Shown: positions 699 to 62,644 of the stretch, in pieces | Layout: every line of letters starts with the position of its first letter | Numbering within the stretch: position 1 is the stretch's first letter | DNA from: a virus | Taxonomy: Duplodnaviria > Heunggongvirae > Uroviricota > Caudoviricetes | IMG/VR virus record: IMGVR_UViG_3300028887_000105 | Reading direction: 5' to 3' (one strand) | DNA: 64,000 bases | Position numbers and translations under genes: made by a program | The notes under the pieces: model-generated | Databases searched by the model: none | Told to the model about the DNA's origin: nothing | The model's input: only the letters and a program-made list of their open reading frames with translations

Positions 699-709
699 TT
701 TCTGGATCA

Positions 710-827
710 GTTTGGCACGGTATTTGTAGGATAAAAGTGCGGGGGAAAATAGACATTTCACTCTCGCACTTTTGAAATTAATTAAAAAGTGTTACCTTTG
801 TAGCAGAAAATTAAAAAATAAGAAATT
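710..827 (+). promoter_or_regulatory. conserved upstream element copy 1: TGGCACG-N4-TTGTA core plus sigma-A-like -33 TTTG / -7 TAccTTTG module
   Basis: near-identical to 2969-3079 and 18975-19106; module B has TTTG-N18-TAccTTTG about 30 nt before ATG 828. Confidence 0.6.
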
Positions 828-2204: not shown

Positions 2205-2795
2205 ATGAGTTGTCATACTTGGGCTTATAGAAAAGTCAAAAATCAGGATTTTCCTGAATTTAAAAAAGACGTATTAGAACGTGTAACGAAGTGCTGGGAT
2301 TATATTCCTGAGGGTGTTGATCCATTTAAACACGTTGACGAAAAATACGCCAAACTTATGGAGGTTTACAAGCCTGAGGATATATTTACCAAGGAAGAAT
2401 TTACTGAGGAAATTCTTGGACAGTACCTTGGCCGTCGTCAGTTCGTTAAGGACCTGGAGGCGTGTGAAAGCCTGAAAGATTTCGTTAAGAAAGATATGGA
2501 AGTTGGAATGAACAGATATTATGACGGCATTAAATATATTTTCCGAGGCGAATCTTTGTACGTGGAATGTGGTAATGATGAACCTGTTCGTATCTACGGA
2601 TATCCTGTAGAACAGTTCACTGACGCTGAAGAGTTTATCAACTGGATTAAAAAGAAGGAATCCAAAGGTAAAACTATTTCCAGACTGTACGATGACAATT
2701 ACGGTTTCATTGACGGTATATGTGGTGAAATGGAAAAAGCCATTCGTGATTTTTGGGAGAAATACGATAACGAAGTATACATTGAATTTGGATAA
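2205..2795 (+). CDS. hypothetical protein
   Basis: 196-aa ORF, ATG start. Confidence 0.55.
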   Translation: MSCHTWAYRKVKNQDFPEFKKDVLERVTKCWDYIPEGVDPFKHVDEKYAKLMEVYKPEDIFTKEEFTEEILGQYLGRRQFVKDLEACESLKDFVKKDMEVGMNRYYDGIKYIFRGESLYVECGNDEPVRIYGYPVEQFTDAEEFINWIKKKESKGKTISRLYDDNYGFIDGICGEMEKAIRDFWEKYDNEVYIEFG

Positions 2796-2797
2796 TT

Positions 2798-2968
2798 ATG
2801 ACTGCAGAAGAATTATATAACAAACTTGAGGAATTAATCCTTAGTGGGTACGGTTCGTGTAAAGTACTTATGGAAGTACCCGATGAGACTGGGTTTGAAG
2901 AGGGTGCTGTAGCCAGTTACGCTGCTGAAGAAGTTGAGGCATATGACAAATATGTTATACTGAAATAA
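2798..2968 (+). CDS. small acidic hypothetical protein
   Basis: 56-aa ORF filling the gap before upstream element copy 2. Confidence 0.3.
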   Translation: MTAEELYNKLEELILSGYGSCKVLMEVPDETGFEEGAVASYAAEEVEAYDKYVILK

Positions 2969-3079
2969 GTTTGGCACGGTATTTGTAGGATAAATTGCGA
3001 GGGTCGATCAAACATTTCACTCTCGCAGTTTTGGAATTAATAAAAAAGTATTACCTTTGTGGTATAAAATTAAAAAATT
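2969..3079 (+). promoter_or_regulatory. conserved upstream element copy 2 (TGGCACG-N4-TTGTA core + sigma-A-like module)
   Basis: GTTTGGCACGGTATTTGTAGGATAAA ... CACTCTCGCAGTTTTGGAATTAATAAAAAAGTATTACCTTTGTGG directly upstream of ATG 3080. Confidence 0.6.
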
Positions 3080-3550
3080 ATGGATATTCAATTTATTGAC
3101 ATTACATCTTATAGAGGCATTTCCTCTAATGCAGAACATTATTACGCTAAGGTTGGTAAACCACAGCACACACAAGAATATTATCTCGTTAACTCAATTT
3201 GCGAGGTAAATGAAGGTGTGTGGTTTCAAGATGAGGAACACCTATTGTTTTATCCAACAAAGGAGGAGGCAACACAACTTTGGGAGAAGGATAATAAGTG
3301 GGATAAAAATGAGTTTGTTATCAAACATAAAGAAGACTCTATTATGGAAATGGTAGAAGATGGCACATATCGCTTCCCATCGATTATTGAGGTTGTTAAA
3401 GCAGCCAAGAAAAAGTTTCCAGATTCACTTCTGTGTTTTTCTTTGCAGCATAGCAGAAAAGAGTTTGCAAGGTGGCTTACTAAATGCTATGAAAACGAGA
3501 AAACTAAAGCATATGTGATTGAAGTTTTAGATATTATTGGAGTTAAATAA
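3080..3550 (+). CDS. hypothetical protein
   Basis: 156-aa ORF just downstream of conserved promoter element. Confidence 0.55.
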   Translation: MDIQFIDITSYRGISSNAEHYYAKVGKPQHTQEYYLVNSICEVNEGVWFQDEEHLLFYPTKEEATQLWEKDNKWDKNEFVIKHKEDSIMEMVEDGTYRFPSIIEVVKAAKKKFPDSLLCFSLQHSRKEFARWLTKCYENEKTKAYVIEVLDIIGVK

Positions 3551-6184: not shown

Positions 6185-6377
6185 TACAATTTACCAGATT
6201 GGGACAAAAGTATGTAAAAAATCAGGAAAGCCATTTCTTTCTACATATAAGGTAAACACGATTAAAGACGTGGTTGAACACCCTTATAAGAAAGTTAATG
6301 GTATTCCTGTAAAGGCATACACATTTGTTGAGGATAACTCAATTGTCGAATGTTCAATATGTAAAATTTTTGTATAG
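6174..6377 (+). CDS. hypothetical protein
   Basis: 67-aa ORF overlapping upstream stop. Confidence 0.45.
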   Translation: MKNNTIYQIGTKVCKKSGKPFLSTYKVNTIKDVVEHPYKKVNGIPVKAYTFVEDNSIVECSICKIFV

Positions 6378-6379
6378 TT

Positions 6380-6661
6380 ATGACACAAGAAGAAAAAAAG
6401 CAGTTGAAAGAATTCATAACATATTATGAAAATGAAAATTTTTATCTGAAAAAGAATAATAATATTTTTGATGGAGATGACAAGAATGTGACCAAGAAGG
6501 TTTTGGATTTTATTATGGCTAATGAGGCATTGATTTTAGATTATTTTTCATTCAATGTTTTTTTGAAACCATTAATTAAAAAACTAGGAAAGAAGTTATT
6601 TAATTATGGCATGATAACTGCTGATGATTGCTTGTATTATATAAATATTAGTTTGAGATGA
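6380..6661 (+). CDS. hypothetical protein (MTQEE start)
   Basis: 93-aa ORF. Confidence 0.45.
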   Translation: MTQEEKKQLKEFITYYENENFYLKKNNNIFDGDDKNVTKKVLDFIMANEALILDYFSFNVFLKPLIKKLGKKLFNYGMITADDCLYYINISLR

Positions 6662-7059
6662 CACAGGAAGAAAAAGATTTATTGTTAAAAGACCTTTGTG
6701 CAAGGTTGCCATATGGTGTAATATGTGATAGATTAGAAAAGCCAAAGAAACTATTAGGGGTTTATCCAACTAAAAAATTCCCATTGGAGTTTGATAATGG
6801 GGAATATATGCCAAGTGACTATGAGTTAGAGGACATTAAGCCATATCTTCGTCCAATGTCAAGTATGACTGAGGAAGAGAAAGAAGAGTATATTCATATT
6901 AAACAAGGGGAATGCAATGGCTGTGTTCTTACAGGAAAAGGTGACCCAAATACAGAATTTTTATTGGTAGATTTTTTCAATACACACCATATAGATTATC
7001 GTGGTTTGATACCTATGGGACTTGCTCTTCCTGCACCAGAAGGAATGTATAAAAATTAA
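6658..7059 (+). CDS. member of the DLCARLPYGV / YLRPMSSMTEEE / HHFDYRGLIxxGLALEAP paralog family (isolated copy)
   Basis: 133 aa; motifs shared with five tandem copies at 60035-62314. Confidence 0.6.
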   Translation: MTQEEKDLLLKDLCARLPYGVICDRLEKPKKLLGVYPTKKFPLEFDNGEYMPSDYELEDIKPYLRPMSSMTEEEKEEYIHIKQGECNGCVLTGKGDPNTEFLLVDFFNTHHIDYRGLIPMGLALPAPEGMYKN

Positions 7060-8092: not shown

Positions 8093-8261
8093 ATGATCCA
8101 TATGAAAACAAAAAGTAAACTCGGTCTGATTAATAAAATAAAACTTAATTGGTTTGGCATTTGTCCAGAATGTGGTGCCAATGTTACATCATCCTGGTAC
8201 TCATTCTTGGATATGAAAGATGTGTGCAAATGTGATAAGTGTGGTTCTATGTATAAGTAAT
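8093..8261 (+). CDS. small Zn-ribbon protein
   Basis: 55 aa; CPECG...CKCDKCG. Confidence 0.3.
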
Positions 8262-8585: not shown

Positions 8586-8763
8586 ATGAAGGGTAAAACT
8601 TTAATAATGAAAAACTGCGGAGAAAACTCCGAAGAATGGGAATATTTTGTTAAATCAAGAAACGCCCGTGGTAAAAAGGATTCATGGTGTAAAGCAGAAG
8701 CCAAACGCGCTTCTAGAAATATCCGTAGAAACAACAAAGTTAATTTAAACGATTATGGTAACT
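8586..8763 (+). CDS. small basic hypothetical protein
   Basis: 58-aa ORF in gap. Confidence 0.3.
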
Positions 8764-11192: not shown

Positions 11193-11695
11193 GAATAGCA
11201 TTAGTAGCACACGATAGTAGAAAAAAGGAACTCGTTGAATGGGTTACCTATAATATGGAAGAGTTGAAGAAACACGAACTCTTCGCAACAGGTACAACTG
11301 GTAGATTACTCAAAGAAATTGAAGGTAAAATTAGATGGGAACCAACAGGAGGAAATGGTGATGGTTCAATATGGAGTAGATATTGCGAATATCCACTAGA
11401 GGATAAAGTTACCTGTTTGAAATCTGGACCGCTTGGTGGCGATCAGGAAATTGGTGCAATGATTGCAGAAGGAAAACTAGATGTACTTATTTTCTTCTGT
11501 GATAACCTTATTCAACAAGGGCACCAAAATGATGTATCTGCATTAACAAGACTTGCGTCGCTTTATAATATTGCATTTGCAACAAACAGAACCACTGCCG
11601 ATATGATCCTTACTTCATCATTATTCAACAATGAAAAATACAAGAAGGTTATGCCTAATTGTATCCAGGAATACATTTCACGAAGTGTTTTCTAA
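11189..11695 (+). CDS. mgsA: methylglyoxal synthase (MGS family) with ~25-aa loop insertion
   Basis: IALVAHD...ATGTTG...SGPLGGDQEIGA...GKLDVLIFF...GHQNDV..LTRLA...ATN..TAD aligns with bacterial MgsA incl. catalytic His/Asp positions. Confidence 0.85.
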   Translation: MRIALVAHDSRKKELVEWVTYNMEELKKHELFATGTTGRLLKEIEGKIRWEPTGGNGDGSIWSRYCEYPLEDKVTCLKSGPLGGDQEIGAMIAEGKLDVLIFFCDNLIQQGHQNDVSALTRLASLYNIAFATNRTTADMILTSSLFNNEKYKKVMPNCIQEYISRSVF

Positions 11696-12060: not shown

Positions 12061-12210
12061 CAGGAAAGAAGTATGAGGTATATGATAAAAGCGGTGGGTT
12101 ACTGGCTTATGGCTGGCACTATGCACCTATTTCGTACAAAGCCCTGGAGAAGGAACTCAAGAGTAAAAACCCAGAGTCGGGTAAAATAATAATTGCAAAA
12201 ATTTAAAGTT

Positions 12211-13272
12211 ATGGCAGTAAAAAGCGATATATTAACAAACGACAACAAACACCTTTCCATTATGGAAAATGGTGACGGTATTGAAGTCGATAAATCTCTG
12301 TTGAAATACTCATCGATCAAAAAAGAAATTGATGAGTTTAGAAAAGAACATTCTGGTGGTAATGCGTCTGAGTTCACTATTAACAATTCATTCGTAACGC
12401 CAGACGGAGTTAGTGACGCTTTCAAGGAGAAAGAGGAAATTAAGAATCTGGCTAAGAACTATGAGATTATCAAAGACAGTGATGTACACGGTGTAAACCT
12501 GTTTGTTAGCAAACACATTGCTAATAATTTATTCTCATCTTTCAATGAGTTTGTTGTAACTAACAACGTTACCTGGAACGGTATTGGTAACGTTAACAAC
12601 GCTCGTAATGTTGCGGACCAGAATGAGAAACCTGGTTTCTTCAAACGCCTTGCTGACCTGTTTAACTTTAAGTCAAAGGAAGCCGAGGAAATTTATACCT
12701 TGGACGTACTTGATTTCTTCTCCAATGTAAAGGGTCTCACCAAGGAGAATAAGGACCTGTATGTTAACCGTCTTACTGGTTACATTGTTGCTCTGAAGAA
12801 CTGTGACGTTTCTGGCCAGGTAGCATTGAAGGAGAAACTTCTTCGTGATATGGTTGTTAACAAGTACGAGTCAGTTCTTTATGCTAACGGTATTTATTAT
12901 GTAGTTACAGAAGATCAAATTGTTAACTTCGTAAAGAAAACCCAGAAAGGTGTTCGTCTTACTTATGTTAAGAATTATCTTCGTGTAATTCCGCCTGAGG
13001 TGGTAGAGAAGATGAACAAGGCTAACGAACTTGAAATCTTTGATAATTACGCAATTCTGCATTATGATCCAGAAGCAAAGAGTTACGCTGAGACTATCAA
13101 AGAAACACAAAAACGTAGGGATCCTATTCTATTTGGCTTGATTCGTGGGTCAAATAAACTATATTATATTACAGACTGGATTGACGAATACTGCGACTTG
13201 ACGTTGGATAAATTCGTTGAGACTCTGCAGATTGACAAAGAAAATTTGAAGATTGAAAACATTAAAATGTAA
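12211..13272 (+). CDS. hypothetical protein
   Basis: track ORF starts at TTG 12193; first ATG 12211; 353 aa. Confidence 0.6.
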   Translation: MAVKSDILTNDNKHLSIMENGDGIEVDKSLLKYSSIKKEIDEFRKEHSGGNASEFTINNSFVTPDGVSDAFKEKEEIKNLAKNYEIIKDSDVHGVNLFVSKHIANNLFSSFNEFVVTNNVTWNGIGNVNNARNVADQNEKPGFFKRLADLFNFKSKEAEEIYTLDVLDFFSNVKGLTKENKDLYVNRLTGYIVALKNCDVSGQVALKEKLLRDMVVNKYESVLYANGIYYVVTEDQIVNFVKKTQKGVRLTYVKNYLRVIPPEVVEKMNKANELEIFDNYAILHYDPEAKSYAETIKETQKRRDPILFGLIRGSNKLYYITDWIDEYCDLTLDKFVETLQIDKENLKIENIKM

Positions 13273-14505: not shown

Positions 14506-14565
14506 TATTTATATATGAGATATTTTTTGTATCTTTATAATAATGAAAATAAAAACTAATTGAAT

Positions 14566-18451: not shown

Positions 18452-18853
18452 ATGAGAAAGAAAAAAGAAGAAGTAACAGAAGAGTTGGTACAGGAAGTTA
18501 AGTATCCAACAGTAGAAGAATTGGTAATTGAGTGTATTAAACACGACATACCAGTAAACGGTGTTGACTATAATGGTAGAAACCTGGAGTATGAGATTGG
18601 CGGTTTCTCAAAGAGTGGTACTGGAAAACTTACCACTGATGAGGACGGTAATACAATCTTAGTTACCAGATATAATACAGTAAACGAAGTAAGATCCTTT
18701 GAGGATATTGCTGACGTTGCATATGATTGGTATTATAACTACCGAGACAGAGAACCATTTACACAGCCAGATTATAACTGGGCACCAATATTTGTTGAAA
18801 TGGGTCTAATTGAGGAACGAATTGTTAAGACCTACGTCCCTGTAGTTCAATGA
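18452..18853 (+). CDS. hypothetical protein
   Basis: 133-aa ORF. Confidence 0.55.
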   Translation: MRKKKEEVTEELVQEVKYPTVEELVIECIKHDIPVNGVDYNGRNLEYEIGGFSKSGTGKLTTDEDGNTILVTRYNTVNEVRSFEDIADVAYDWYYNYRDREPFTQPDYNWAPIFVEMGLIEERIVKTYVPVVQ

Positions 18854-18910
18854 ATAGAACGTGGGTTTCCTAAACCTAAGATCTGCGTTTGATTCGCAGC
18901 AGGGGTACTT

Positions 18911-18941
18911 AAAAAGAGAGGATTAATTCCTCTTTTTTTTG
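18911..18941 (+). terminator. rho-independent terminator
   Basis: AGAGAGG-ATTAATT-CCTCTTT hairpin + T8, followed by GTATAATTAC. Confidence 0.65.
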
Positions 18942-18974
18942 TATAATTACTACACTTTCTTTCTGTTCGGATCA

Positions 18975-19106
18975 GTTTGGCACGGTATTTGTAAGATAAA
19001 AATTGAGGCGCATAGTGAACAACTCACTCTCGCAGTTTTGAAATTAAAAAAAAATGTGTTACCTTTGCGGTACGAAATTGAAAAAACAGATTAAAATTTT
19101 AGTAAT
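18975..19106 (+). promoter_or_regulatory. conserved upstream element copy 3 (TGGCACG-N4-TTGTA core + sigma-A-like module)
   Basis: GTTTGGCACGGTATTTGTAAGATAAAA ... CACTCTCGCAGTTTTGAAATTAAAAAAAAATGTGTTACCTTTGCGG upstream of ATG 19107. Confidence 0.6.
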
Positions 19107-19358
19107 ATGAAAAAAGTAAAAACAGAGTATGTTGCAATTGTTAATGGCGATAAATACGTTATTTTTTCGCCAGATATTTCTAGAATTAATCCACATACCG
19201 TTTTGGGTTGCGTATTGTATGAGGGTAGTGCTCATAGTTCTTTGTATTACAACGAGGGTAACTATTCAAAAGAAGAACTAGAAAGTGCTGGTTATGGTAT
19301 TGTCGATGAAATAGTTAAAGTTGACACATATACAGAAGAAACAACAATTTATAAATAA
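19107..19358 (+). CDS. hypothetical protein
   Basis: 83-aa ORF downstream of conserved element. Confidence 0.5.
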   Translation: MKKVKTEYVAIVNGDKYVIFSPDISRINPHTVLGCVLYEGSAHSSLYYNEGNYSKEELESAGYGIVDEIVKVDTYTEETTIYK

Positions 19359-20202: not shown

Positions 20203-20231
20203 AATTGTGTAATTACGATGTGCCCTTATCA

Positions 20232-20324
20232 GTTTGGCACGGTATTTGTACTGAAAAAAGTACGACCGTATTTATTAGGTCTGTAAAGTAAAAGTAGAAT
20301 ATTAACTAAAACAAATAAAATAAA
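20232..20324 (+). promoter_or_regulatory. upstream element copy 4 (TGGCACG-N4-TTGTA core only)
   Basis: CAGTTTGGCACGGTATTTGTACTGAAAAAAGTAC...; module B absent. Confidence 0.45.
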
Positions 20325-20744
20325 ATGAAAAGAATTAAGTATTGGAAAGTCGTTAAAGACGGAGTTGACATTGAAACCGCTAACAATATGCTTAAAGCAC
20401 AGGCGGTTGAAGGACATTTGTATGACAGATTGGCCGTGCGCCTGAAAGGTGATGGTAACATCTACGAATACGGTACTGACCTTATGAGTCGCAACTTTAC
20501 CGCTAAGGTTGTACTTCACGGAACCTGGGAGATACTGATCCCTGATGACGGAGAAGAGGAACGTCTGGATAAACTGCGTAAGATTGTTAAGGATGAAAAT
20601 TTCCTTACGGTAAATCACGAGGCTATTGACAATATGAATATCGATGCTATCTGGAAAAAGGTCGTCGATCGTATTGACAGTAATAAAGCCAAGTACGTGG
20701 TTATCAAGGCTATTGTCGAAAACAAATTGTATAAAGACAAGTAA
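20325..20744 (+). CDS. hypothetical protein
   Basis: 139-aa ORF. Confidence 0.55.
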   Translation: MKRIKYWKVVKDGVDIETANNMLKAQAVEGHLYDRLAVRLKGDGNIYEYGTDLMSRNFTAKVVLHGTWEILIPDDGEEERLDKLRKIVKDENFLTVNHEAIDNMNIDAIWKKVVDRIDSNKAKYVVIKAIVENKLYKDK

Positions 20745-32736: not shown

Positions 32737-32768
32737 GCGTGCTAAGGGCCACTTTGGCACGCTTTTTG
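32737..32768 (+). terminator. rho-independent terminator overlapping a TGGCACG-N4-TTGTT element
   Basis: GCGTGC-loop-GCACGC + TTTTTG; 3' arm forms CTTTGGCACGCTTTTTGTT. Confidence 0.55.
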
Positions 32769-32798
32769 TTTGACTTTTAATAAAAAATTTGTATAATT
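32751..32798 (+). promoter_or_regulatory. upstream element variant (TTTGGCACGC-TTTT-TGTT) + TTTGTATAATT box before ATG 32799
   Basis: seen in sequence; same core as copies at 710/2969/18975. Confidence 0.4.
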
Positions 32799-33248
32799 AT
32801 GATACATGAAAAAATCAATGGGCTGATCATGGAATCAATGAAAGCCCGCAACGATATACGTACGGAATCACTCCGTGCAATCAAGACCGCTTTCCTTAAC
32901 TGGAAAACGGAAAAAGAAAACGTTGGCAAGGAACCTGACGAGGCTTCAGAGTTGCAGATGCTTAGGAAACTCGTTAAACAGCGCCAGGAGTCAATTGAAA
33001 TGTACAATGCTGCTGGCAGAACCGATTTGGCTGAAGCAGAGGCCGCACAGATTAACGTTATCAAAGAATTTCTTCCTGCTGAAGCAACAGAGGAAGACGT
33101 TCTTAAGGCTTTCAACGAGGTTCTTACTGATCTGGACATTGAGCCAGTAAAGAAGAATATGGGTGCCTTTGTAAAGAACATCAAGACTATCTTGCCTAAC
33201 GCAGACGGTAAGTTGGTAGCAAGTGTTGTACAAAAACAATTGCATTAA
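32799..33248 (+). CDS. GatB/YqeY-domain protein
   Basis: 149 aa; collinear with bacterial YqeY (KARND.R.ESLRAIK...QRQESIEMY..AGR.DLAEAE...EFLP...EE...........MGAFVK.....DGKLV..VV). Confidence 0.8.
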   Translation: MIHEKINGLIMESMKARNDIRTESLRAIKTAFLNWKTEKENVGKEPDEASELQMLRKLVKQRQESIEMYNAAGRTDLAEAEAAQINVIKEFLPAEATEEDVLKAFNEVLTDLDIEPVKKNMGAFVKNIKTILPNADGKLVASVVQKQLH

Positions 33249-37815: not shown

Positions 37816-37856
37816 CGAAAGGCAGGCTGAAAGGCTTGCCTTTTTAATTTTTTTTG
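37816..37856 (+). terminator. rho-independent terminator
   Basis: AAAGGCAGGC-TGAAAG-GCTTGCCTTT hairpin + TTTTTAATTTTTTTT, then GTATATTTAAA. Confidence 0.65.
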
Positions 37857-37885
37857 TATATTTAAACAATAAAAGATAATTAACT

Positions 37886-44462: not shown

Positions 44463-44498
44463 TTATTGGTTCTCGTTTGGGAACCAATTTTTTTTTTG
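44463..44498 (+). terminator. rho-independent terminator
   Basis: ATTGGTTC-TCGTTTGG-GAACCAAT hairpin + T10, then GTATAATTAC. Confidence 0.7.
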
Positions 44499-44523
44499 TA
44501 TAATTACTAAAAATATTGATAAT

Positions 44524-47294: not shown

Positions 47295-47504
47295 ATGGAA
47301 CTATTAGAAAATAACTATGGTAAGGTACGGTGTCGCACATGTGACTCCGTACTAAAACCTGGTAAAGAGGATATACACTCAAACTATGATAATGAATATT
47401 ATGTAATTTGTCCAGTTTGTGGTCAAGATATTTGGTTTGATGGAAAGCCAAGTACTAATCCAGTTCTTAAACATATAATTCATGGTGGATTACCACATAG
47501 ATAA
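47295..47504 (+). CDS. small Zn-ribbon protein
   Basis: CRTCDS...CPVCGQ; non-overlapping ATG inside track ORF 47274. Confidence 0.45.
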   Translation: MELLENNYGKVRCRTCDSVLKPGKEDIHSNYDNEYYVICPVCGQDIWFDGKPSTNPVLKHIIHGGLPHR

Positions 47505-47555
47505 GTTTGGCACAGTTTTTGTATATTTGTTGTAGTAACTTAAAAATTTAAAATA
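47505..47555 (+). promoter_or_regulatory. upstream element variant: TTTGGCACA-GTTT-TTGTA followed by TATATTTG box
   Basis: AGTTTGGCACAGTTTTTGTATATTTGTTG 25 nt before ATG 47556. Confidence 0.45.
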
Positions 47556-47780
47556 ATGAAACATTTGACAGAAAAAGAACTTTTTCCAGGTAAAGCGGTT
47601 AGATACTATCCTTTCATTGATGGCGACGGTAATCCAGATAGCGAACCTAAACTTGGTATTGTAGCCAGTGGTCCTTACTATATATGTGGTAGTGTATGCT
47701 ACAAACTCGCTGAGGTAAGTGCTGTAGTAGACATTGAAAATCTATTTGATGTATGGGACGAAGACAAAGTTAGTGAATAA
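47556..47780 (+). CDS. hypothetical protein
   Basis: 74-aa ORF. Confidence 0.45.
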   Translation: MKHLTEKELFPGKAVRYYPFIDGDGNPDSEPKLGIVASGPYYICGSVCYKLAEVSAVVDIENLFDVWDEDKVSE

Positions 47781-59751: not shown

Positions 59752-60038
59752 CAAAGACATTTAGACAATTAGAACGAGGTGATAAGATTTTAGTTAAAAA
59801 CATAACAAAACATGTACCTTGCAATGTTACAATAGACGACCATCATTACATAACGGAAGTTGTTAGTGAAGATAAAACAATGACTATTGACACATTCTCT
59901 CATTATGATAATGGTCTTGGAGGTAAGTTGGTAGAGTTTTATGCATATCCTTATTTAGGTGTAACTCTCAGATTTGAAATGGCTGTAGACGACTTAGATA
60001 AAACAGAAACAGAAAAATATAAAATATTAGACATATGA
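59748..60038 (+). CDS. hypothetical protein
   Basis: non-overlapping ATG inside track ORF 59724. Confidence 0.45.
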   Translation: MTKTFRQLERGDKILVKNITKHVPCNVTIDDHHYITEVVSEDKTMTIDTFSHYDNGLGGKLVEFYAYPYLGVTLRFEMAVDDLDKTETEKYKILDI

Positions 60039-60433
60039 CAAATCAAGATAAAGAACTATTATTGAAAGACCTTTGTGGAAGGTTGTATTATGGCGTTAAA
60101 TTTCACTATTTCTCAGAATTTGCTGATGGTGAAGACCCAGAATTTGATAATACTATCGTAATGATAGATATGGCTGATGAGCAAATCCTTGACGAAGACC
60201 ATGAAGATTATATTCCAATCAGACAGATAGTGCCGTATCTCCGTCCATTATCTAGTATGACTGATGAAGAAGATAAAGAATTTGCTCTTCTTCAAACTGA
60301 CTTTTATGTTGATGGGTTTCTTTATCCAATTGCAGCAGTAAATATGATTAATTGGCTTAATAAACATCATTTTGACTACAATGGATTAATTGAAAAAGGC
60401 TTAGCATTGGAGGCACCTAAAGATATGTATTAA
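60035..60433 (+). CDS. tandem family copy 1 (DLCGRLYYGV / YLRPLSSMTDEE / HHFDYNGLIEKGLALEAPKDMY)
   Basis: 132 aa; family motifs. Confidence 0.6.
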   Translation: MTNQDKELLLKDLCGRLYYGVKFHYFSEFADGEDPEFDNTIVMIDMADEQILDEDHEDYIPIRQIVPYLRPLSSMTDEEDKEFALLQTDFYVDGFLYPIAAVNMINWLNKHHFDYNGLIEKGLALEAPKDMY

Positions 60434-60435
60434 TT

Positions 60436-60840
60436 ATGGAAAAAGAAAAACAATATTTTAAGACTCAGATTACACGCAATGGATTAGATCTTATCGTTAA
60501 AGATATGTCTGCTCGTATAGCATACGGAGTAATGGTTTCCGATGTACATATGGATGGAGATGTATTAACCTCGCCATATAAATTGTGGGATATTATTATT
60601 GATGACTGGTACGATGAAAATTTTGATAATTACCAAATGTGCTATCTTCGTCCCATGTCAAGTATGACAAAAAAAGAAAAAGAAGAGTTTGAAAAAACTT
60701 GTTTCTTTTCCAATGAGATTGGTACTATTCAAACTATAGAAAGTGCTGATTGGTTAAATGCACATCACTTTGATTACCGTGGTTTAATTGAATTAGGTTT
60801 AGCATTTAAGGCCCCTAAAGATATGTATAAATTCGAATAA
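60436..60840 (+). CDS. tandem family copy 2 (divergent N-terminus; CYLRPMSSMTKKEKEEF / HHFDYRGLIELGLAFKAPKDMYKFE)
   Basis: 134 aa. Confidence 0.6.
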   Translation: MEKEKQYFKTQITRNGLDLIVKDMSARIAYGVMVSDVHMDGDVLTSPYKLWDIIIDDWYDENFDNYQMCYLRPMSSMTKKEKEEFEKTCFFSNEIGTIQTIESADWLNAHHFDYRGLIELGLAFKAPKDMYKFE

Positions 60841-60842
60841 TT

Positions 60843-61277
60843 ATGACACAAGAAGAAAAAGAATTATTAGCAAAAGATATTTTTAGTCGTGCAATGTGTG
60901 GATTAAAGGTACAATATCATGGAGAAATATATACTTTGGGATATAACCTTTATCTGGAAGAAAGTTCAACAGCGTTTGAAAGTTATCCAATGAAATGTTT
61001 TCTAAGTAAGATTGAGGAAATTAAACCCTATCTTCGCCCAATGTCAAGTATGACTGAGGAAGAACGTAATGATTTTGAAGATGAATCTCATGGCTGGTTT
61101 TATGTTAATGATGATGGTGAAATATATCCTATTGGTCAATTTACTGATAGTGGTGAATTTGAAGATGGAATATTAGGTGGTATAGAATATTTAAATAAAA
61201 ACCATTTTGATTACCGTGGTTTAATTCATAGAGAACTTGCTCTTGAAGCACCTGAAGATATGTATAAAACAAAATAA
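60843..61277 (+). CDS. tandem family copy 3
   Basis: 144 aa; MTQEEKELLAKDIFSRAMCGL / YLRPMSSMTEEERNDF / HFDYRGLIHRELALEAPEDMY. Confidence 0.6.
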   Translation: MTQEEKELLAKDIFSRAMCGLKVQYHGEIYTLGYNLYLEESSTAFESYPMKCFLSKIEEIKPYLRPMSSMTEEERNDFEDESHGWFYVNDDGEIYPIGQFTDSGEFEDGILGGIEYLNKNHFDYRGLIHRELALEAPEDMYKTK

Positions 61278-61279
61278 CT

Positions 61280-61729
61280 ATGACACAAGAAGATAAAGAA
61301 CTATTATTGACAGACATTTGTGCAAGACTACCTTATGGTGTTAAAGTAGAAAATACAAGTTTTTCAGAATCACAAATACATACACTGTTCGGTAGAGTTT
61401 CTGATGATGAATTTCTGATGTTAGAAACATATAAAAGTGTTGGTGGTGAAGATTATAGAAGAGTTACCGATGATATACATTATACAGGTTATTTAGAAAA
61501 CATTAAACCTTATCTCCGTCCTATGTCAAGTATGACTGAAAAGGAATGTTATGAATTGCATTTCATTAGAAGCAATTTTACGGATAATTGGAAGTACATC
61601 AAGACTCCGATTCCGTTGAGTATCGCTAACTATAATCAAGTCGATTGGCTCAACAGTCATCACTTTGATTATCGAGGTTTAATTGAAAAAGGGCTTGCAC
61701 TTGAAGCACCTGCAGATATGTATAAATAA
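61280..61729 (+). CDS. tandem family copy 4
   Basis: 149 aa; MTQEDKELLLTDICARLPYGV / YLRPMSSMTEKECYEL / HHFDYRGLIEKGLALEAPADMY. Confidence 0.6.
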   Translation: MTQEDKELLLTDICARLPYGVKVENTSFSESQIHTLFGRVSDDEFLMLETYKSVGGEDYRRVTDDIHYTGYLENIKPYLRPMSSMTEKECYELHFIRSNFTDNWKYIKTPIPLSIANYNQVDWLNSHHFDYRGLIEKGLALEAPADMYK

Positions 61730-61740
61730 CTTTTATTGAT

Positions 61741-61941
61741 ATGATAAAGACATGTTACTATGCTATTATAGATAAATGGTATGATACGTATATTGGCAAT
61801 GACAACAAGAAACACCGTAAATACTATACTAATATAATACATTATATGGAAGGTGGATATCCAATGAAATACATAGAAAATATTAATAAACTACCTAGAC
61901 ATCAATATAGTTATATTTGGAGTTTTTGTCCAATTAAGTAA
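61741..61941 (+). CDS. hypothetical Tyr-rich protein inserted in tandem array
   Basis: 66-aa ORF. Confidence 0.4.
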   Translation: MIKTCYYAIIDKWYDTYIGNDNKKHRKYYTNIIHYMEGGYPMKYIENINKLPRHQYSYIWSFCPIK

Positions 61942-61954
61942 ATAATAGATAGAT

Positions 61955-62314
61955 ATGACACAGGAAGATAAAGAATTATTATTGAAAGATCTTTGTGCAA
62001 GGTTACCTTATGGCGTAATGTTATATGTTGAAGGTATAAAGAAAAATATTAAGTTATTTGCAGTTGAAGATACTGGAATAAACGGTTTTCAATTTCAGTT
62101 TGTTAAACCATATCTCCGTTCAATGTCTTCGATGACAGAAGATGAAATAGAAGAATATAATAATATAACTCTTATTCATACTCCTTGGGGCATTATGACA
62201 GACAGAATAATCGAATTAATCAATTTTCTCAACTCTCGCCACTTTGACTACAGAGGACTCATAGATAAAGGTATTGCACTTGAAGCACCTAAAGATATGT
62301 ATAAATTTGATTAA
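61955..62314 (+). CDS. tandem family copy 5
   Basis: 119 aa; MTQEDKELLLKDLCARLPYGV / YLRSMSSMTEDEIEEY / HFDYRGLIDKGIALEAPKDMYKFD. Confidence 0.6.
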   Translation: MTQEDKELLLKDLCARLPYGVMLYVEGIKKNIKLFAVEDTGINGFQFQFVKPYLRSMSSMTEDEIEEYNNITLIHTPWGIMTDRIIELINFLNSRHFDYRGLIDKGIALEAPKDMYKFD

Positions 62315-62315
62315 T

Positions 62316-62477
62316 TATGAAAAAATATCACTCAAAAGGTACATGTTCTCAATGTCTTTTTGGTCCATATTATAAAAATGGTAAGAATTGGTGTACTGAG
62401 CATAATAGAGAAATTAAAAATCCAAATATAGAACATTGTAATCAATTTTGGAGAGGTGATTTTGCAAAAAGAAAATA
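62316..62477 (+). CDS. small Cys-containing protein
   Basis: 53 aa; CSQCLFGPYY...C. Confidence 0.3.
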
Positions 62478-62488
62478 ATTTAAAAATT

Positions 62489-62644
62489 ATGACACAAGAA
62501 GAAATTAAACAATATCTTAAAGACAATTTGAAATTGGGATATTTTAAATATAGATCGTGCGGTCAAAATTACATAGGTTTTAAACTTACGTTAGGCGAAG
62601 AAATAATCAGTGAAATTAGACCAAGTATAAAATCCTTTTTTTAA
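62489..62644 (+). CDS. small hypothetical protein (MTQEE start)
   Basis: 51 aa inside track ORF 62456. Confidence 0.35.
   Translation: MTQEEIKQYLKDNLKLGYFKYRSCGQNYIGFKLTLGEEIISEIRPSIKSFF

Follow-up and report, generated by a model that had tools for sequence, protein, structure and literature searches.

The DNA studied here, a 64,000-nucleotide stretch of a Caudoviricetes genome (IMG/VR record IMGVR_UViG_3300028887_000105; hereafter, the window), contains six copies of a 20-nt element, module A, which we conclude with high confidence is a real repeat and a promoter. Its sequence very probably belongs to the sigma-54 class, with conserved blocks at -24 and -12, and we propose that it would serve as the main repeated promoter of a clade of jumbo phages that infect Bacteroidales. 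At three of the six sites module A is followed by a second element, module B, which is probably an independent promoter class; the two together form cassettes of about 115 bp. The window corresponds to positions ~52,967–116,966 of a 253,946-bp ENA contig (ERZ27257203:k141_2048293), the genome of a 254-kb jumbo phage from gut or rumen, and our searches of this phage's own sequence covered 84 kb, or about one third, of that contig.

Module A reads AGTT-TGGCACGGTATTTGTA and occurs exactly six times in the window, in every case between genes, on the plus (gene) strand, and directly 5′ of an open reading frame (ORF; starts at 828, 3080, 19107, 20325, 32799, and 47556). The 16-mer TGGCACGGTATTTGTA is exact at 713, 2972, 18978, and 20235 and carries two mismatches at 47508 and three at 32755. 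With up to three mismatches allowed, eight matches are found where 0.53 are expected, a number reached in none of 100 shuffles; the two additional matches, at 12574 and 39478, have low scores and lie within ORFs. When 118 sites of other phages are made into a weight matrix, with the window excluded, the six sites receive 23.8–32.2 bits and the next best match 13.7 bits, while shuffled windows yield at most two matches at 10 bits or more; given this gap, we take six to be the complete count. A preliminary description of this DNA had placed joint copies at 710–827, 2969–3079, and 18975–19106 and module A alone at 20232, 32751, and 47505, for at least six repeats, and the matrix recovers exactly these sites. 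That description had also suggested a phage-wide signal, which agrees with the nine strong module A sites in the 84 kb searched, five of them accompanied by module B. The GG and TTG blocks have precisely the spacing of sigma-54 promoters in all six copies, and the base at -12 is T in each, again as first described (TTGT in place of TTGC). Transcription is predicted to begin ~12 nt downstream of the TTG(T/C) block. The copies are as follows:

709–728, plus strand: module A copy 1 (AGTT-TGGCAC-GGTAT-TTGTA), 30.8 bits; GG at 714–715 (-25/-24), G at 726 (-13), T at 727 (-12); predicted sigma-54-type start ~739.
2968–2987, plus strand: module A copy 2, 30.8 bits; starts where the upstream ORF ends, at its stop codon; predicted start ~2998.
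18974–18993, plus strand: module A copy 3, 30.4 bits; predicted start ~19004.
20231–20250, plus strand: module A copy 4, without module B, 29.1 bits; predicted start ~20261, ATG at 20325.
32751–32770, plus strand: module A copy 5 (ACTT-TGGCAC-GCTTT-TTGTT), without module B, 23.8 bits; predicted start ~32781, ATG of a YqeY-like gene at 32799.
47504–47523, plus strand: module A copy 6 (AGTT-TGGCAC-AGTTT-TTGTA), without the module B box, 32.2 bits; predicted start ~47534, ATG at 47556.

A sigma-A-like TAtaTTTG (47522–47529) overlaps the 3′ end of copy 6. Five of the nine copies in the window phage have GGATC or GATC immediately 5′ of AGTTTGGCAC (window 704–712 and 18969–18977; ~8097–8105 in locus L220, ~11512–11520 and ~13153–13161 in locus L218), which could be a methylation or restriction-type site.

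The element recurs well beyond this phage, with at least 142–181 sites in IMG/VR jumbo-phage contigs representing dozens of distant relatives. The exact 18-mer TTTGGCACGGTATTTGTA is present in 12 stretches from at least 10 IMG/VR jumbo contigs (45–361 kb), amid flanks unrelated to the window, and proteins of motif-bearing contigs are at most ~40% identical to those of the window, or undetectable. Conservation is far stronger in the motif than in the genes behind it, and the motif is therefore conserved for its own sake. From 142 unique sites we derived the consensus aGTT-TGGCAC-G-n-T-W-T-TTG-(C/T)-A-tata, with no sequence information upstream of -4 (relative to the T of TGGCAC). An ORF starts within 200 nt in 129 of these sites, and the -12 base lies a median of 43 nt from the ATG; in looser scans the motif reaches 1.3 copies per kb in relatives' loci, always on the gene strand. 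It also precedes tRNA genes, standing 14–16 nt 5′ of the first gene of 24–25-tRNA arrays in loci L007 and L010 (as a tandem motif in L007) and 23 nt 5′ of a run of tRNA genes that begins with tRNA-His in locus L004. At most sites that have module A only, no sigma-A-type box intervenes between motif and gene. Because module A is placed before protein and tRNA genes alike, usually with no other promoter-like box behind it, we regard it as a promoter. The preliminary description had offered either an enhancer or operator or a promoter for an alternative holoenzyme, and it is the promoter that survives, given that module A stands alone before many genes and 14–23 nt before tRNA arrays.

Further observations bear on the distribution of the motif. 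A tRNA-Arg(CCT), found at 18836–18908 in the window, is the first gene of the L007 and L010 tRNA arrays. The pattern TGGCAC-N5-TTG is absent from a 50-kb piece of a Lak megaphage and from a gut phage scaffold found through RNA-ligase similarity, so the motif is not typical of Prevotella megaphages at large. In a broad scan of IMG/VR for TGGCAC-N5-TTGCATAT, the matches listed came mostly from scattered contigs.

The likeness to sigma-54 promoters goes deeper than the spacing first noticed. The bacterial consensus is TGGCAC-N5-TTGC(A/T) (PMC12316311; PMC7057263), and TGGCAC-N5-TTGCA accounts for most copies in loci L215, L188, L166, L009, and L012, nearly exclusively so in L215 and L188; the canonical motif therefore has a variant form, TTGT, in the window phage. 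To obtain an unbiased mismatch profile, we used 181 sites with at most three mismatches over 17 specified positions. Near-invariant positions are the GG (8 mismatches in total), A4 (1), T11 (1), and G13, that is, -13 (3), while the changes tolerated are C5 to T (35), G6 to A (38), and A15 to T (21), which yield TGGCAY-R...TTGCW, the known degeneracies of sigma-54 promoters. The sole departure is at -12, where family sites have C 62 times, T 68, A 7, and G once. It is very unlikely that the site of an unrelated factor would by chance match about 11 consensus positions, keep the exact spacing, and tolerate the same changes. The predicted starts would place tRNA 5′ ends at +5 to +14 and give leaders of ~31 nt, which is compatible with such a promoter. 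Since the -12 C is variable and the enhancer that marks sigma-54-dependent promoters was not found (see below), membership in the sigma-54-dependent family is not established; the statement that stands is that module A works like a -24/-12 promoter.

The two conserved blocks could be read differently. TGGCA and TTGCA/TTGTA are alike and lie 11 bp apart, and module A might be a regulator site composed of two TKGCA half-sites one helical turn apart, acting as operator or activator for a weak core promoter downstream (the 'tata' or module B). Face-to-face palindromes of the motif occur in other IMG/VR contigs, and tandem arrays in the terminal inverted repeats of 11-kb phi29-like phages would suit a DNA-binding protein, much as the NFI site does in adenovirus origins. 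In the jumbo family, however, the motif is single, strictly co-oriented with the gene, and as far from ATGs and tRNAs as a promoter would be; behind most A-only sites there is no recognizable core promoter; and the mismatch profile, with its near-invariant GG and G-13, resembles that of sigma-54 sites rather than of two equivalent half-sites. We judge a regulator site to be quite improbable.

The small phages merit a description of their own. Seven genomes of ~11 kb (L098, L034, L070, L134, L143, L148, and L202) are complete phi29-like podoviruses, with the Phi29 major capsid protein (MCP), connector, gp16 ATPase, and protein-primed PolB, and each of their terminal inverted repeats holds four tandem, inward-facing copies of TGGCACGGTTTTTGC(T/A). 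A BLAST search found no sigma gene in them, and they have no proteins in common with the jumbo family. If the arrays are promoters, they must therefore be read by a host factor, and these phages, unrelated to the jumbo clade, may use host sigma-54 likewise; the arrays are suggestive only, either of promoters for a host factor or of replication-origin elements or binding sites. Another five loci (L351, L390, L457, L146, and L138; 36–60% GC) contain face-to-face pairs, TGGCAC-N5-TTGCAtatatGCAA-N5-GTGCCA, together with dense, canonical sigma-54-like arrays. Loci L140 and L141 contain polysaccharide-type genes and may be host-derived.

What reads module A? From its sequence, we somewhat favor the host sigma-54, whose holoenzyme would bind GG at -25/-24 and TTG(T/C) at -15 to -12. 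Sigma-54 is alone among bacterial sigma factors in depending on an ATP-driven activator to open DNA, and at its promoters the enhancer-binding ATPase is normally bound ~80–150 bp upstream. The closed complex of the holoenzyme is opened only by this bacterial enhancer-binding protein (bEBP), of the AAA+ type (PMC7057263). Both sigma-54 and bEBPs are present in the Bacteroidota (PMC9723704), in which mapped -24/-12 promoters drive chaperone, protease/protein-quality-control, and envelope-stress genes (PMC9723704; PMC12316311).

Several results weigh against host sigma-54 as the reader. No conserved upstream activator site was found in the window phage, where no 8-mer is common to more than three of nine upstream 200-nt regions, and genes often adjoin module A directly (for example, a stop codon at 2966–2968 and the motif from 2968/2969). 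A tblastn search of 4.7 Mb of loci with Escherichia coli RpoN and PspF matched only host-like contigs with few motif copies, and a scan of IMG/VR with a back-translated RpoN box matched seven contigs, none of them motif-bearing or of the module A family. The T at -12 in all window copies stands against the near-invariant C of bacterial sigma-54 promoters. The 3′ half of module A, TTTGYAtata, is similar to the -7 region seen at box-dependent promoters of loci L011 and L131 (described below). Finally, we found no precedent in the literature, beyond one promoter of phage YuA, for bulk phage transcription, tRNAs included, through sigma-54.

Other searches for a reader or activator gave similar results. 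A back-translated GGTLFLDE scan of IMG/VR returned, among the matches listed, only host-like contigs with few motif copies, and in GenBank 'phage' records rpoN and bEBP genes appeared in host-contaminated entries only. PHROG and Pfam scans of the ORFs of the largest relatives revealed no reader of module A, and neither did a bulk Pfam scan, which covered multi-member families only; most large ORFs and proteins in genomes of the family are unannotatable. One 'factor' that motif-bearing lineages have in common proved to be a sugar dehydratase.

With no conserved enhancer and no activator gene found, the ATPase step would have to come from elsewhere if host sigma-54 is the reader, and we consider three candidate sources. 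A host bEBP, possibly one activated by the stress of infection, might act from solution; a phage protein that we did not recognize might remodel sigma-54; or the need for an activator might be lowered by the non-consensus T at -12 together with the easily melted 'tata' at -10 to -6. Wang, Syed and Gralla reportedly described, in 1997, promoter DNA determinants of sigma-54 activator bypass. The broadest form of the proposal, that most transcription in the Bacteroidales jumbo-phage clade, including that of tRNA arrays, depends on host sigma-54 acting at enhancer-less -24/-12 promoters, we advance only tentatively and think rather doubtful.

Alternatively, module A could be a promoter read by a phage factor (a phage RNA polymerase, a sigma-54-like protein of very divergent sequence, or some other sigma) whose recognition sequence copies or descends from the sigma-54 consensus. 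RpoC is reported from gut 'Jug' jumbo phages of Bacteroides (PMC12880540), relatives of the window phage encode a sigma-70-family protein, the -12 C is not conserved, TTTGCATATA is common to module A and to box-dependent promoters of a non-sigma-54 type, and unannotatable proteins make up the bulk of these genomes. Yet tblastn of the family loci examined found no similarity to RpoB or RpoC fragments, or to RpoN, and agreement with sigma-54 at about 11 positions, with exact spacing and the same degeneracies, would very rarely arise by chance. The encoded sigma is, moreover, a near-copy of the primary sigma-A. It lies at 2567–3430 on the minus strand of locus L042 (contig IMGVR_UViG_3300021399_000099), with a partial copy in locus L009, and comprises regions 1.2, 2, 3, and 4; its homologs, 287 aa in length, 76–100% identical, and named 'RNA polymerase primary sigma factor', are abundant in metagenomes. 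Judging from its sequence, it should be a captured primary sigma-A that reads TAnnTTTG promoters, which makes it an unlikely reader of a -24/-12 motif, and we rejected it as such. The sequence upstream of its gene is TTGACT-N17-TAGAAT, not module A. A phage factor is, in our assessment, an unlikely reader of module A.

Module B was initially described as a textbook Bacteroidota sigma-A promoter. The TTTG and TAccTTTG elements on which that rested are indeed there, but the invariant part is a box specific to this phage lineage, ACTCTCGC, 25 nt before the -7 element. The module B core, CACTCTCGCASTTTTGRAATTAA, occurs in the window only at 759, 3018, and 19025, with none expected:

760–767, plus strand: upstream box ACTCTCGC of module B copy 1, at ~-45 to -38 from the predicted B start.
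771–774, plus strand: TTTG, the -33-like element of module B copy 1, seen in the window-phage copies and not in the relative contig.
793–800, plus strand: -7 box TAccTTTG of module B copy 1; predicted sigma-A-type start ~805, conserved leader GAAAATTAAAAA, ATG at 828.
3019–3059, plus strand: module B copy 2; box at 3019–3026, N25, TAccTTTG at 3052–3059, predicted start ~3064, ATG at 3080.
19026–19067, plus strand: module B copy 3; box at 19026–19033, N26, TAccTTTG at 19060–19067, predicted start ~19072, ATG at 19107.

These three -7 boxes lie 20–40 nt 5′ of the ATG, and the B starts were predicted from the geometry of the Bacteroidota sigma-A -7 box, in which the G of TTTG is at -5 (PMC9723704). 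All five cassettes of the window phage share an invariant ACTCTCGCA, then TTTG, a spacer, GT(A/G)TTA(C/T)CTTTG, and the leader (A/G)AAATT(A/G)AAAAA; the -33-like TTTG, 18 nt upstream of the -7 box, is in all five, and the box is separated from the -7 element by N25 (once N26).

Only one other IMG/VR contig, 3300028887_000155 (loci L011 and L131), contains the exact module B pattern. In 32 kb of it the ACTCTCGC box occurs 41 times, and 39 of the 41 are followed by TAnnTTTG at N25 or, in a second flavor ending in TTTGCATATA, at N24. Divergent back-to-back pairs, GCGAGAGT-N5-ACTCTCGC, are frequent there, and some are perfectly palindromic. Most B-type promoters of this contig lack the -33 TTTG, so there the box is the conserved upstream element. 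The examined parts of the contig have no detectable protein in common with the 84 kb of the window phage, and both promoter types are common to the two. A triple tandem order seen in L011 and L131 is a terminator, ACTCTCGC-N24-TTTATTTGCATATA, ~60 nt, module A, ~30 nt, module B, and the gene. Among 185,579 bacterial and archaeal genomes, the B pattern gave 77 single matches scattered across phyla and no genome with several copies; at this chance level a host promoter type is ruled out, and module B is therefore a phage-specific promoter class. On this analysis, module B is probably an independent second class of promoter read by sigma-A RNA polymerase plus a phage factor on the box, a phage-encoded factor that would act as MotA does at the middle promoters of T4.

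What the preliminary description took for a variable ~20-nt spacer between modules A and B is, in four of the five cassettes (window 713 and 2972, L218:11521, and L220:8106), a conserved hairpin, whose 13–15-bp stem is formed by the spacer, the B box as 3′ arm, and the following T-run. Energies range from -17.5 to -19.6 kcal/mol (z -5.5 to -5.7), and none of 200 shuffles folds equally well. The nucleotide after CGCA covaries with its partner: the pair is C:G in the cassette at 713, G.U in that at 2972 and in L220, and U:A plus C:G in L218. Given the several G.U pairs, the structure is formed by plus-sense RNA only. The hairpin features in the window, with a canonical terminator found at cassette 3, are:

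732–774, plus strand: hairpin of copy 1, with the B box as its 3′ arm; 14 pairs, two of them G.U, between AAAA and UUUU(G); -17.5 kcal/mol, z -5.7, 0 of 200 shuffles as stable.
2992–3031, plus strand: hairpin of copy 2, 3′ arm at the B box (3019–3026); -17.5 kcal/mol, z -5.5.
18917–18941, plus strand: canonical terminator (AGAGGATTAATTCCTCT then T8), after the tRNA-Arg(CCT) gene and just 5′ of cassette 3.

The flanking A-tract and U-run resemble those of an intrinsic terminator; the loop measures 8–15 nt, and the U-run (UUUU(G) or UUUUU) is short and partly paired to the A-tract. Cassette 3 (18978) lacks the hairpin (z 0.06) and is the sole cassette preceded by a separate canonical terminator. 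A simple terminator scan of the window did not list the A–B hairpin, and a sigma-70-type promoter/terminator scan was uninformative for this type of host. From the five cassettes, the hairpin is probably the terminator of the upstream operon. A sigma-54-type start at 739 or 2998 falls inside its 5′ arm and leaves half a hairpin of -9.3 kcal/mol, so transcripts initiated at module A would hold half the stem and escape termination, and module B lies 3′ of the hairpin. Each cassette might thus mark an operon boundary, a stop followed by a restart from two promoter classes.

One could instead see in the 115-bp unit of module A, hairpin, and module B mainly a mobile or recombinogenic cassette, comparable to the promoter-early stem-loop (PeSL) elements of T4, with its repetition owed to gene shuffling rather than regulatory selection. 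Copies 1 and 2 share an identical 20-nt module A and, over another 67 nt, ~90% identity, and the cassettes stand next to small ORFs of no known function, in a part of the genome with many paralogous gene arrays. Modules A and B are, however, each found alone and are conserved across phages without detectable common proteins, and invariance is confined to the functional blocks, with compensatory changes in a variable spacer. Such mobility would in any case add to a promoter function and not replace it; as the main explanation we think it very improbable. An Rfam search of the window identified one tRNA and nothing else, and the cassette is therefore not a known RNA family.

A further motif, like TTTTTGTATAATTA, occurs at 6367–6380, 14524–14537, 18936–18949, 32786–32799, 37851–37864, and 44493–44506 among its 13 matches in the window (5.1 expected); two are exact, both right after terminator hairpins. 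It resembles the 3′ half of module A without TGGCAC. It may represent another promoter-like class, the third here, or just the U-tract of a terminator joined to an AT-rich box.

Several lines of evidence point to a Bacteroidales host for the window phage. Its SPFH protein is 46% identical to the counterpart in Bacteroides phage crAss001, and its RNA ligase is 30–34% identical to ligases of Prevotella Lak phages; BACON and BspA-type LRR domains are present in its relatives, one of which encodes the 287-aa near-copy of the primary sigma-A. The -7 box of module B is of the Bacteroidota type, and leaders are A-rich and without a Shine-Dalgarno sequence. Megablast of 20 kb against GenBank phages found no close relative. 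By GC skew and ORFs, the window holds ~150–190 small genes, all on one strand, with very few intergenic gaps.

Other features of the genome were noted in passing. Arrays of paralogous genes of ~130–150 aa (beginning MTQEEKELL...) lie at 60013–62530 and 6636–7054, with further copies at 8751, 48354, and 48779; the copies are 60–89% identical in DNA (repeat families D1–D8), and the region looks like a plastic, duplicating accessory region. The ORF at 12193–13272 matches a PHROG transposase family. It belongs to an ORF set in which two unnamed members matched the Pfam families OrfB_IS605 and Cas12f1-like TNB, so it may be TnpB-like; the phage would then carry a mobile element. Just past the 3′ end of the window, genes for NAD synthase, NAPRTase, and NUDIX are located at L218 16052–19728, and L220 encodes adenylosuccinate synthase. 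These genes fit the gut jumbo phages with 'NAD+ synthesis' already described (PMC11662467).

To our knowledge, no phage has yet been found to build its transcription program on sigma-54. What is unusual about module A is the scale, with hundreds of sites across the clade, tRNA arrays included, and that enhancers and activators were not found. If host sigma-54 does read module A, these phages must supply or evade the activation step, which would imply either phage transcription factors of a new class or a natural bypass of the sigma-54 activator by a new route; a hijacked, stress-activated host activator working from solution is the alternative, with the C-to-T change at -12 tuning the dependence. 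Infection would then be linked to the sigma-54 stress regulon of the Bacteroidota. Module A also offers a sharp, easily searched marker of operon starts for unannotatable jumbo phages of the gut and rumen, and the A/B cassettes offer compact terminator and dual-promoter parts for engineering of Bacteroidales.

Module A matches bacterial sigma-54 promoters (TGGCAC-N5-TTGCW) in its GG and TTG(C) blocks and the exact distance between them, in the T and G alongside (TTGGCACG), in tolerating Y at -21, R at -19, and W at -11, and in its promoter-like distance to the gene. It differs in the T at -12 (all window copies and about half of the family), in an extra conserved T-W-T spacer and the downstream 'tata', and in that no conserved enhancer site or activator gene was found. 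Its use differs as well, since module A reaches 1.3 sites per kb and stands before nearly every small operon as well as tRNA arrays, whereas bacterial sigma-54 promoters serve a few stress and nitrogen operons. The literature that we searched contains no genome-wide family of sigma-54-type promoters in phages, and only the single case of Pseudomonas phage YuA, in which a sigma-54-like promoter has promoter-trap and cappable-seq support (Ceyssens et al. 2008, cited in bioRxiv 10.1101/2023.10.13.562163). As far as the citing preprint describes it, that promoter is a single one beside sigma-70-like and phage-specific ones, whereas module A is the dominant repeat of a whole clade.

Module B invites comparison with T4 middle promoters, which combine a MotA box with a sigma-70 -10 element through MotA/AsiA sigma appropriation. 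In both, a phage box is placed at fixed spacing from a host-type downstream element, and in contig 3300028887_000155 the box replaces the host upstream element (no -33 TTTG). The module B box is centered at ~-42 rather than -30, no MotA or AsiA homolog was identified, and the host is of the Bacteroidota, with -33/-7 geometry. With the sigma-A promoters of the Bacteroidota (-33 TTTG / -7 TAnnTTTG), module B has in common the TAccTTTG, the TTTG 18 nt upstream, and an A-rich leader without a Shine-Dalgarno sequence (PMC9723704); it differs by the invariant ACTCTCGC box, which lies outside the host consensus and is enriched in none of the 185,579 genomes. The joint A+B cassettes find their nearest likeness in the arrangement of T4 PeSL cassettes. 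These, reportedly described by Arbiol et al. in 2010, are said to be ~100-bp repeats of a promoter and a stem-loop between small novel ORFs, and the A+B cassettes are likewise ~100-bp promoter and stem-loop repeats between small novel ORFs in a plastic region of the genome, with the difference that here the stem-loop is flanked by two promoters of different classes.

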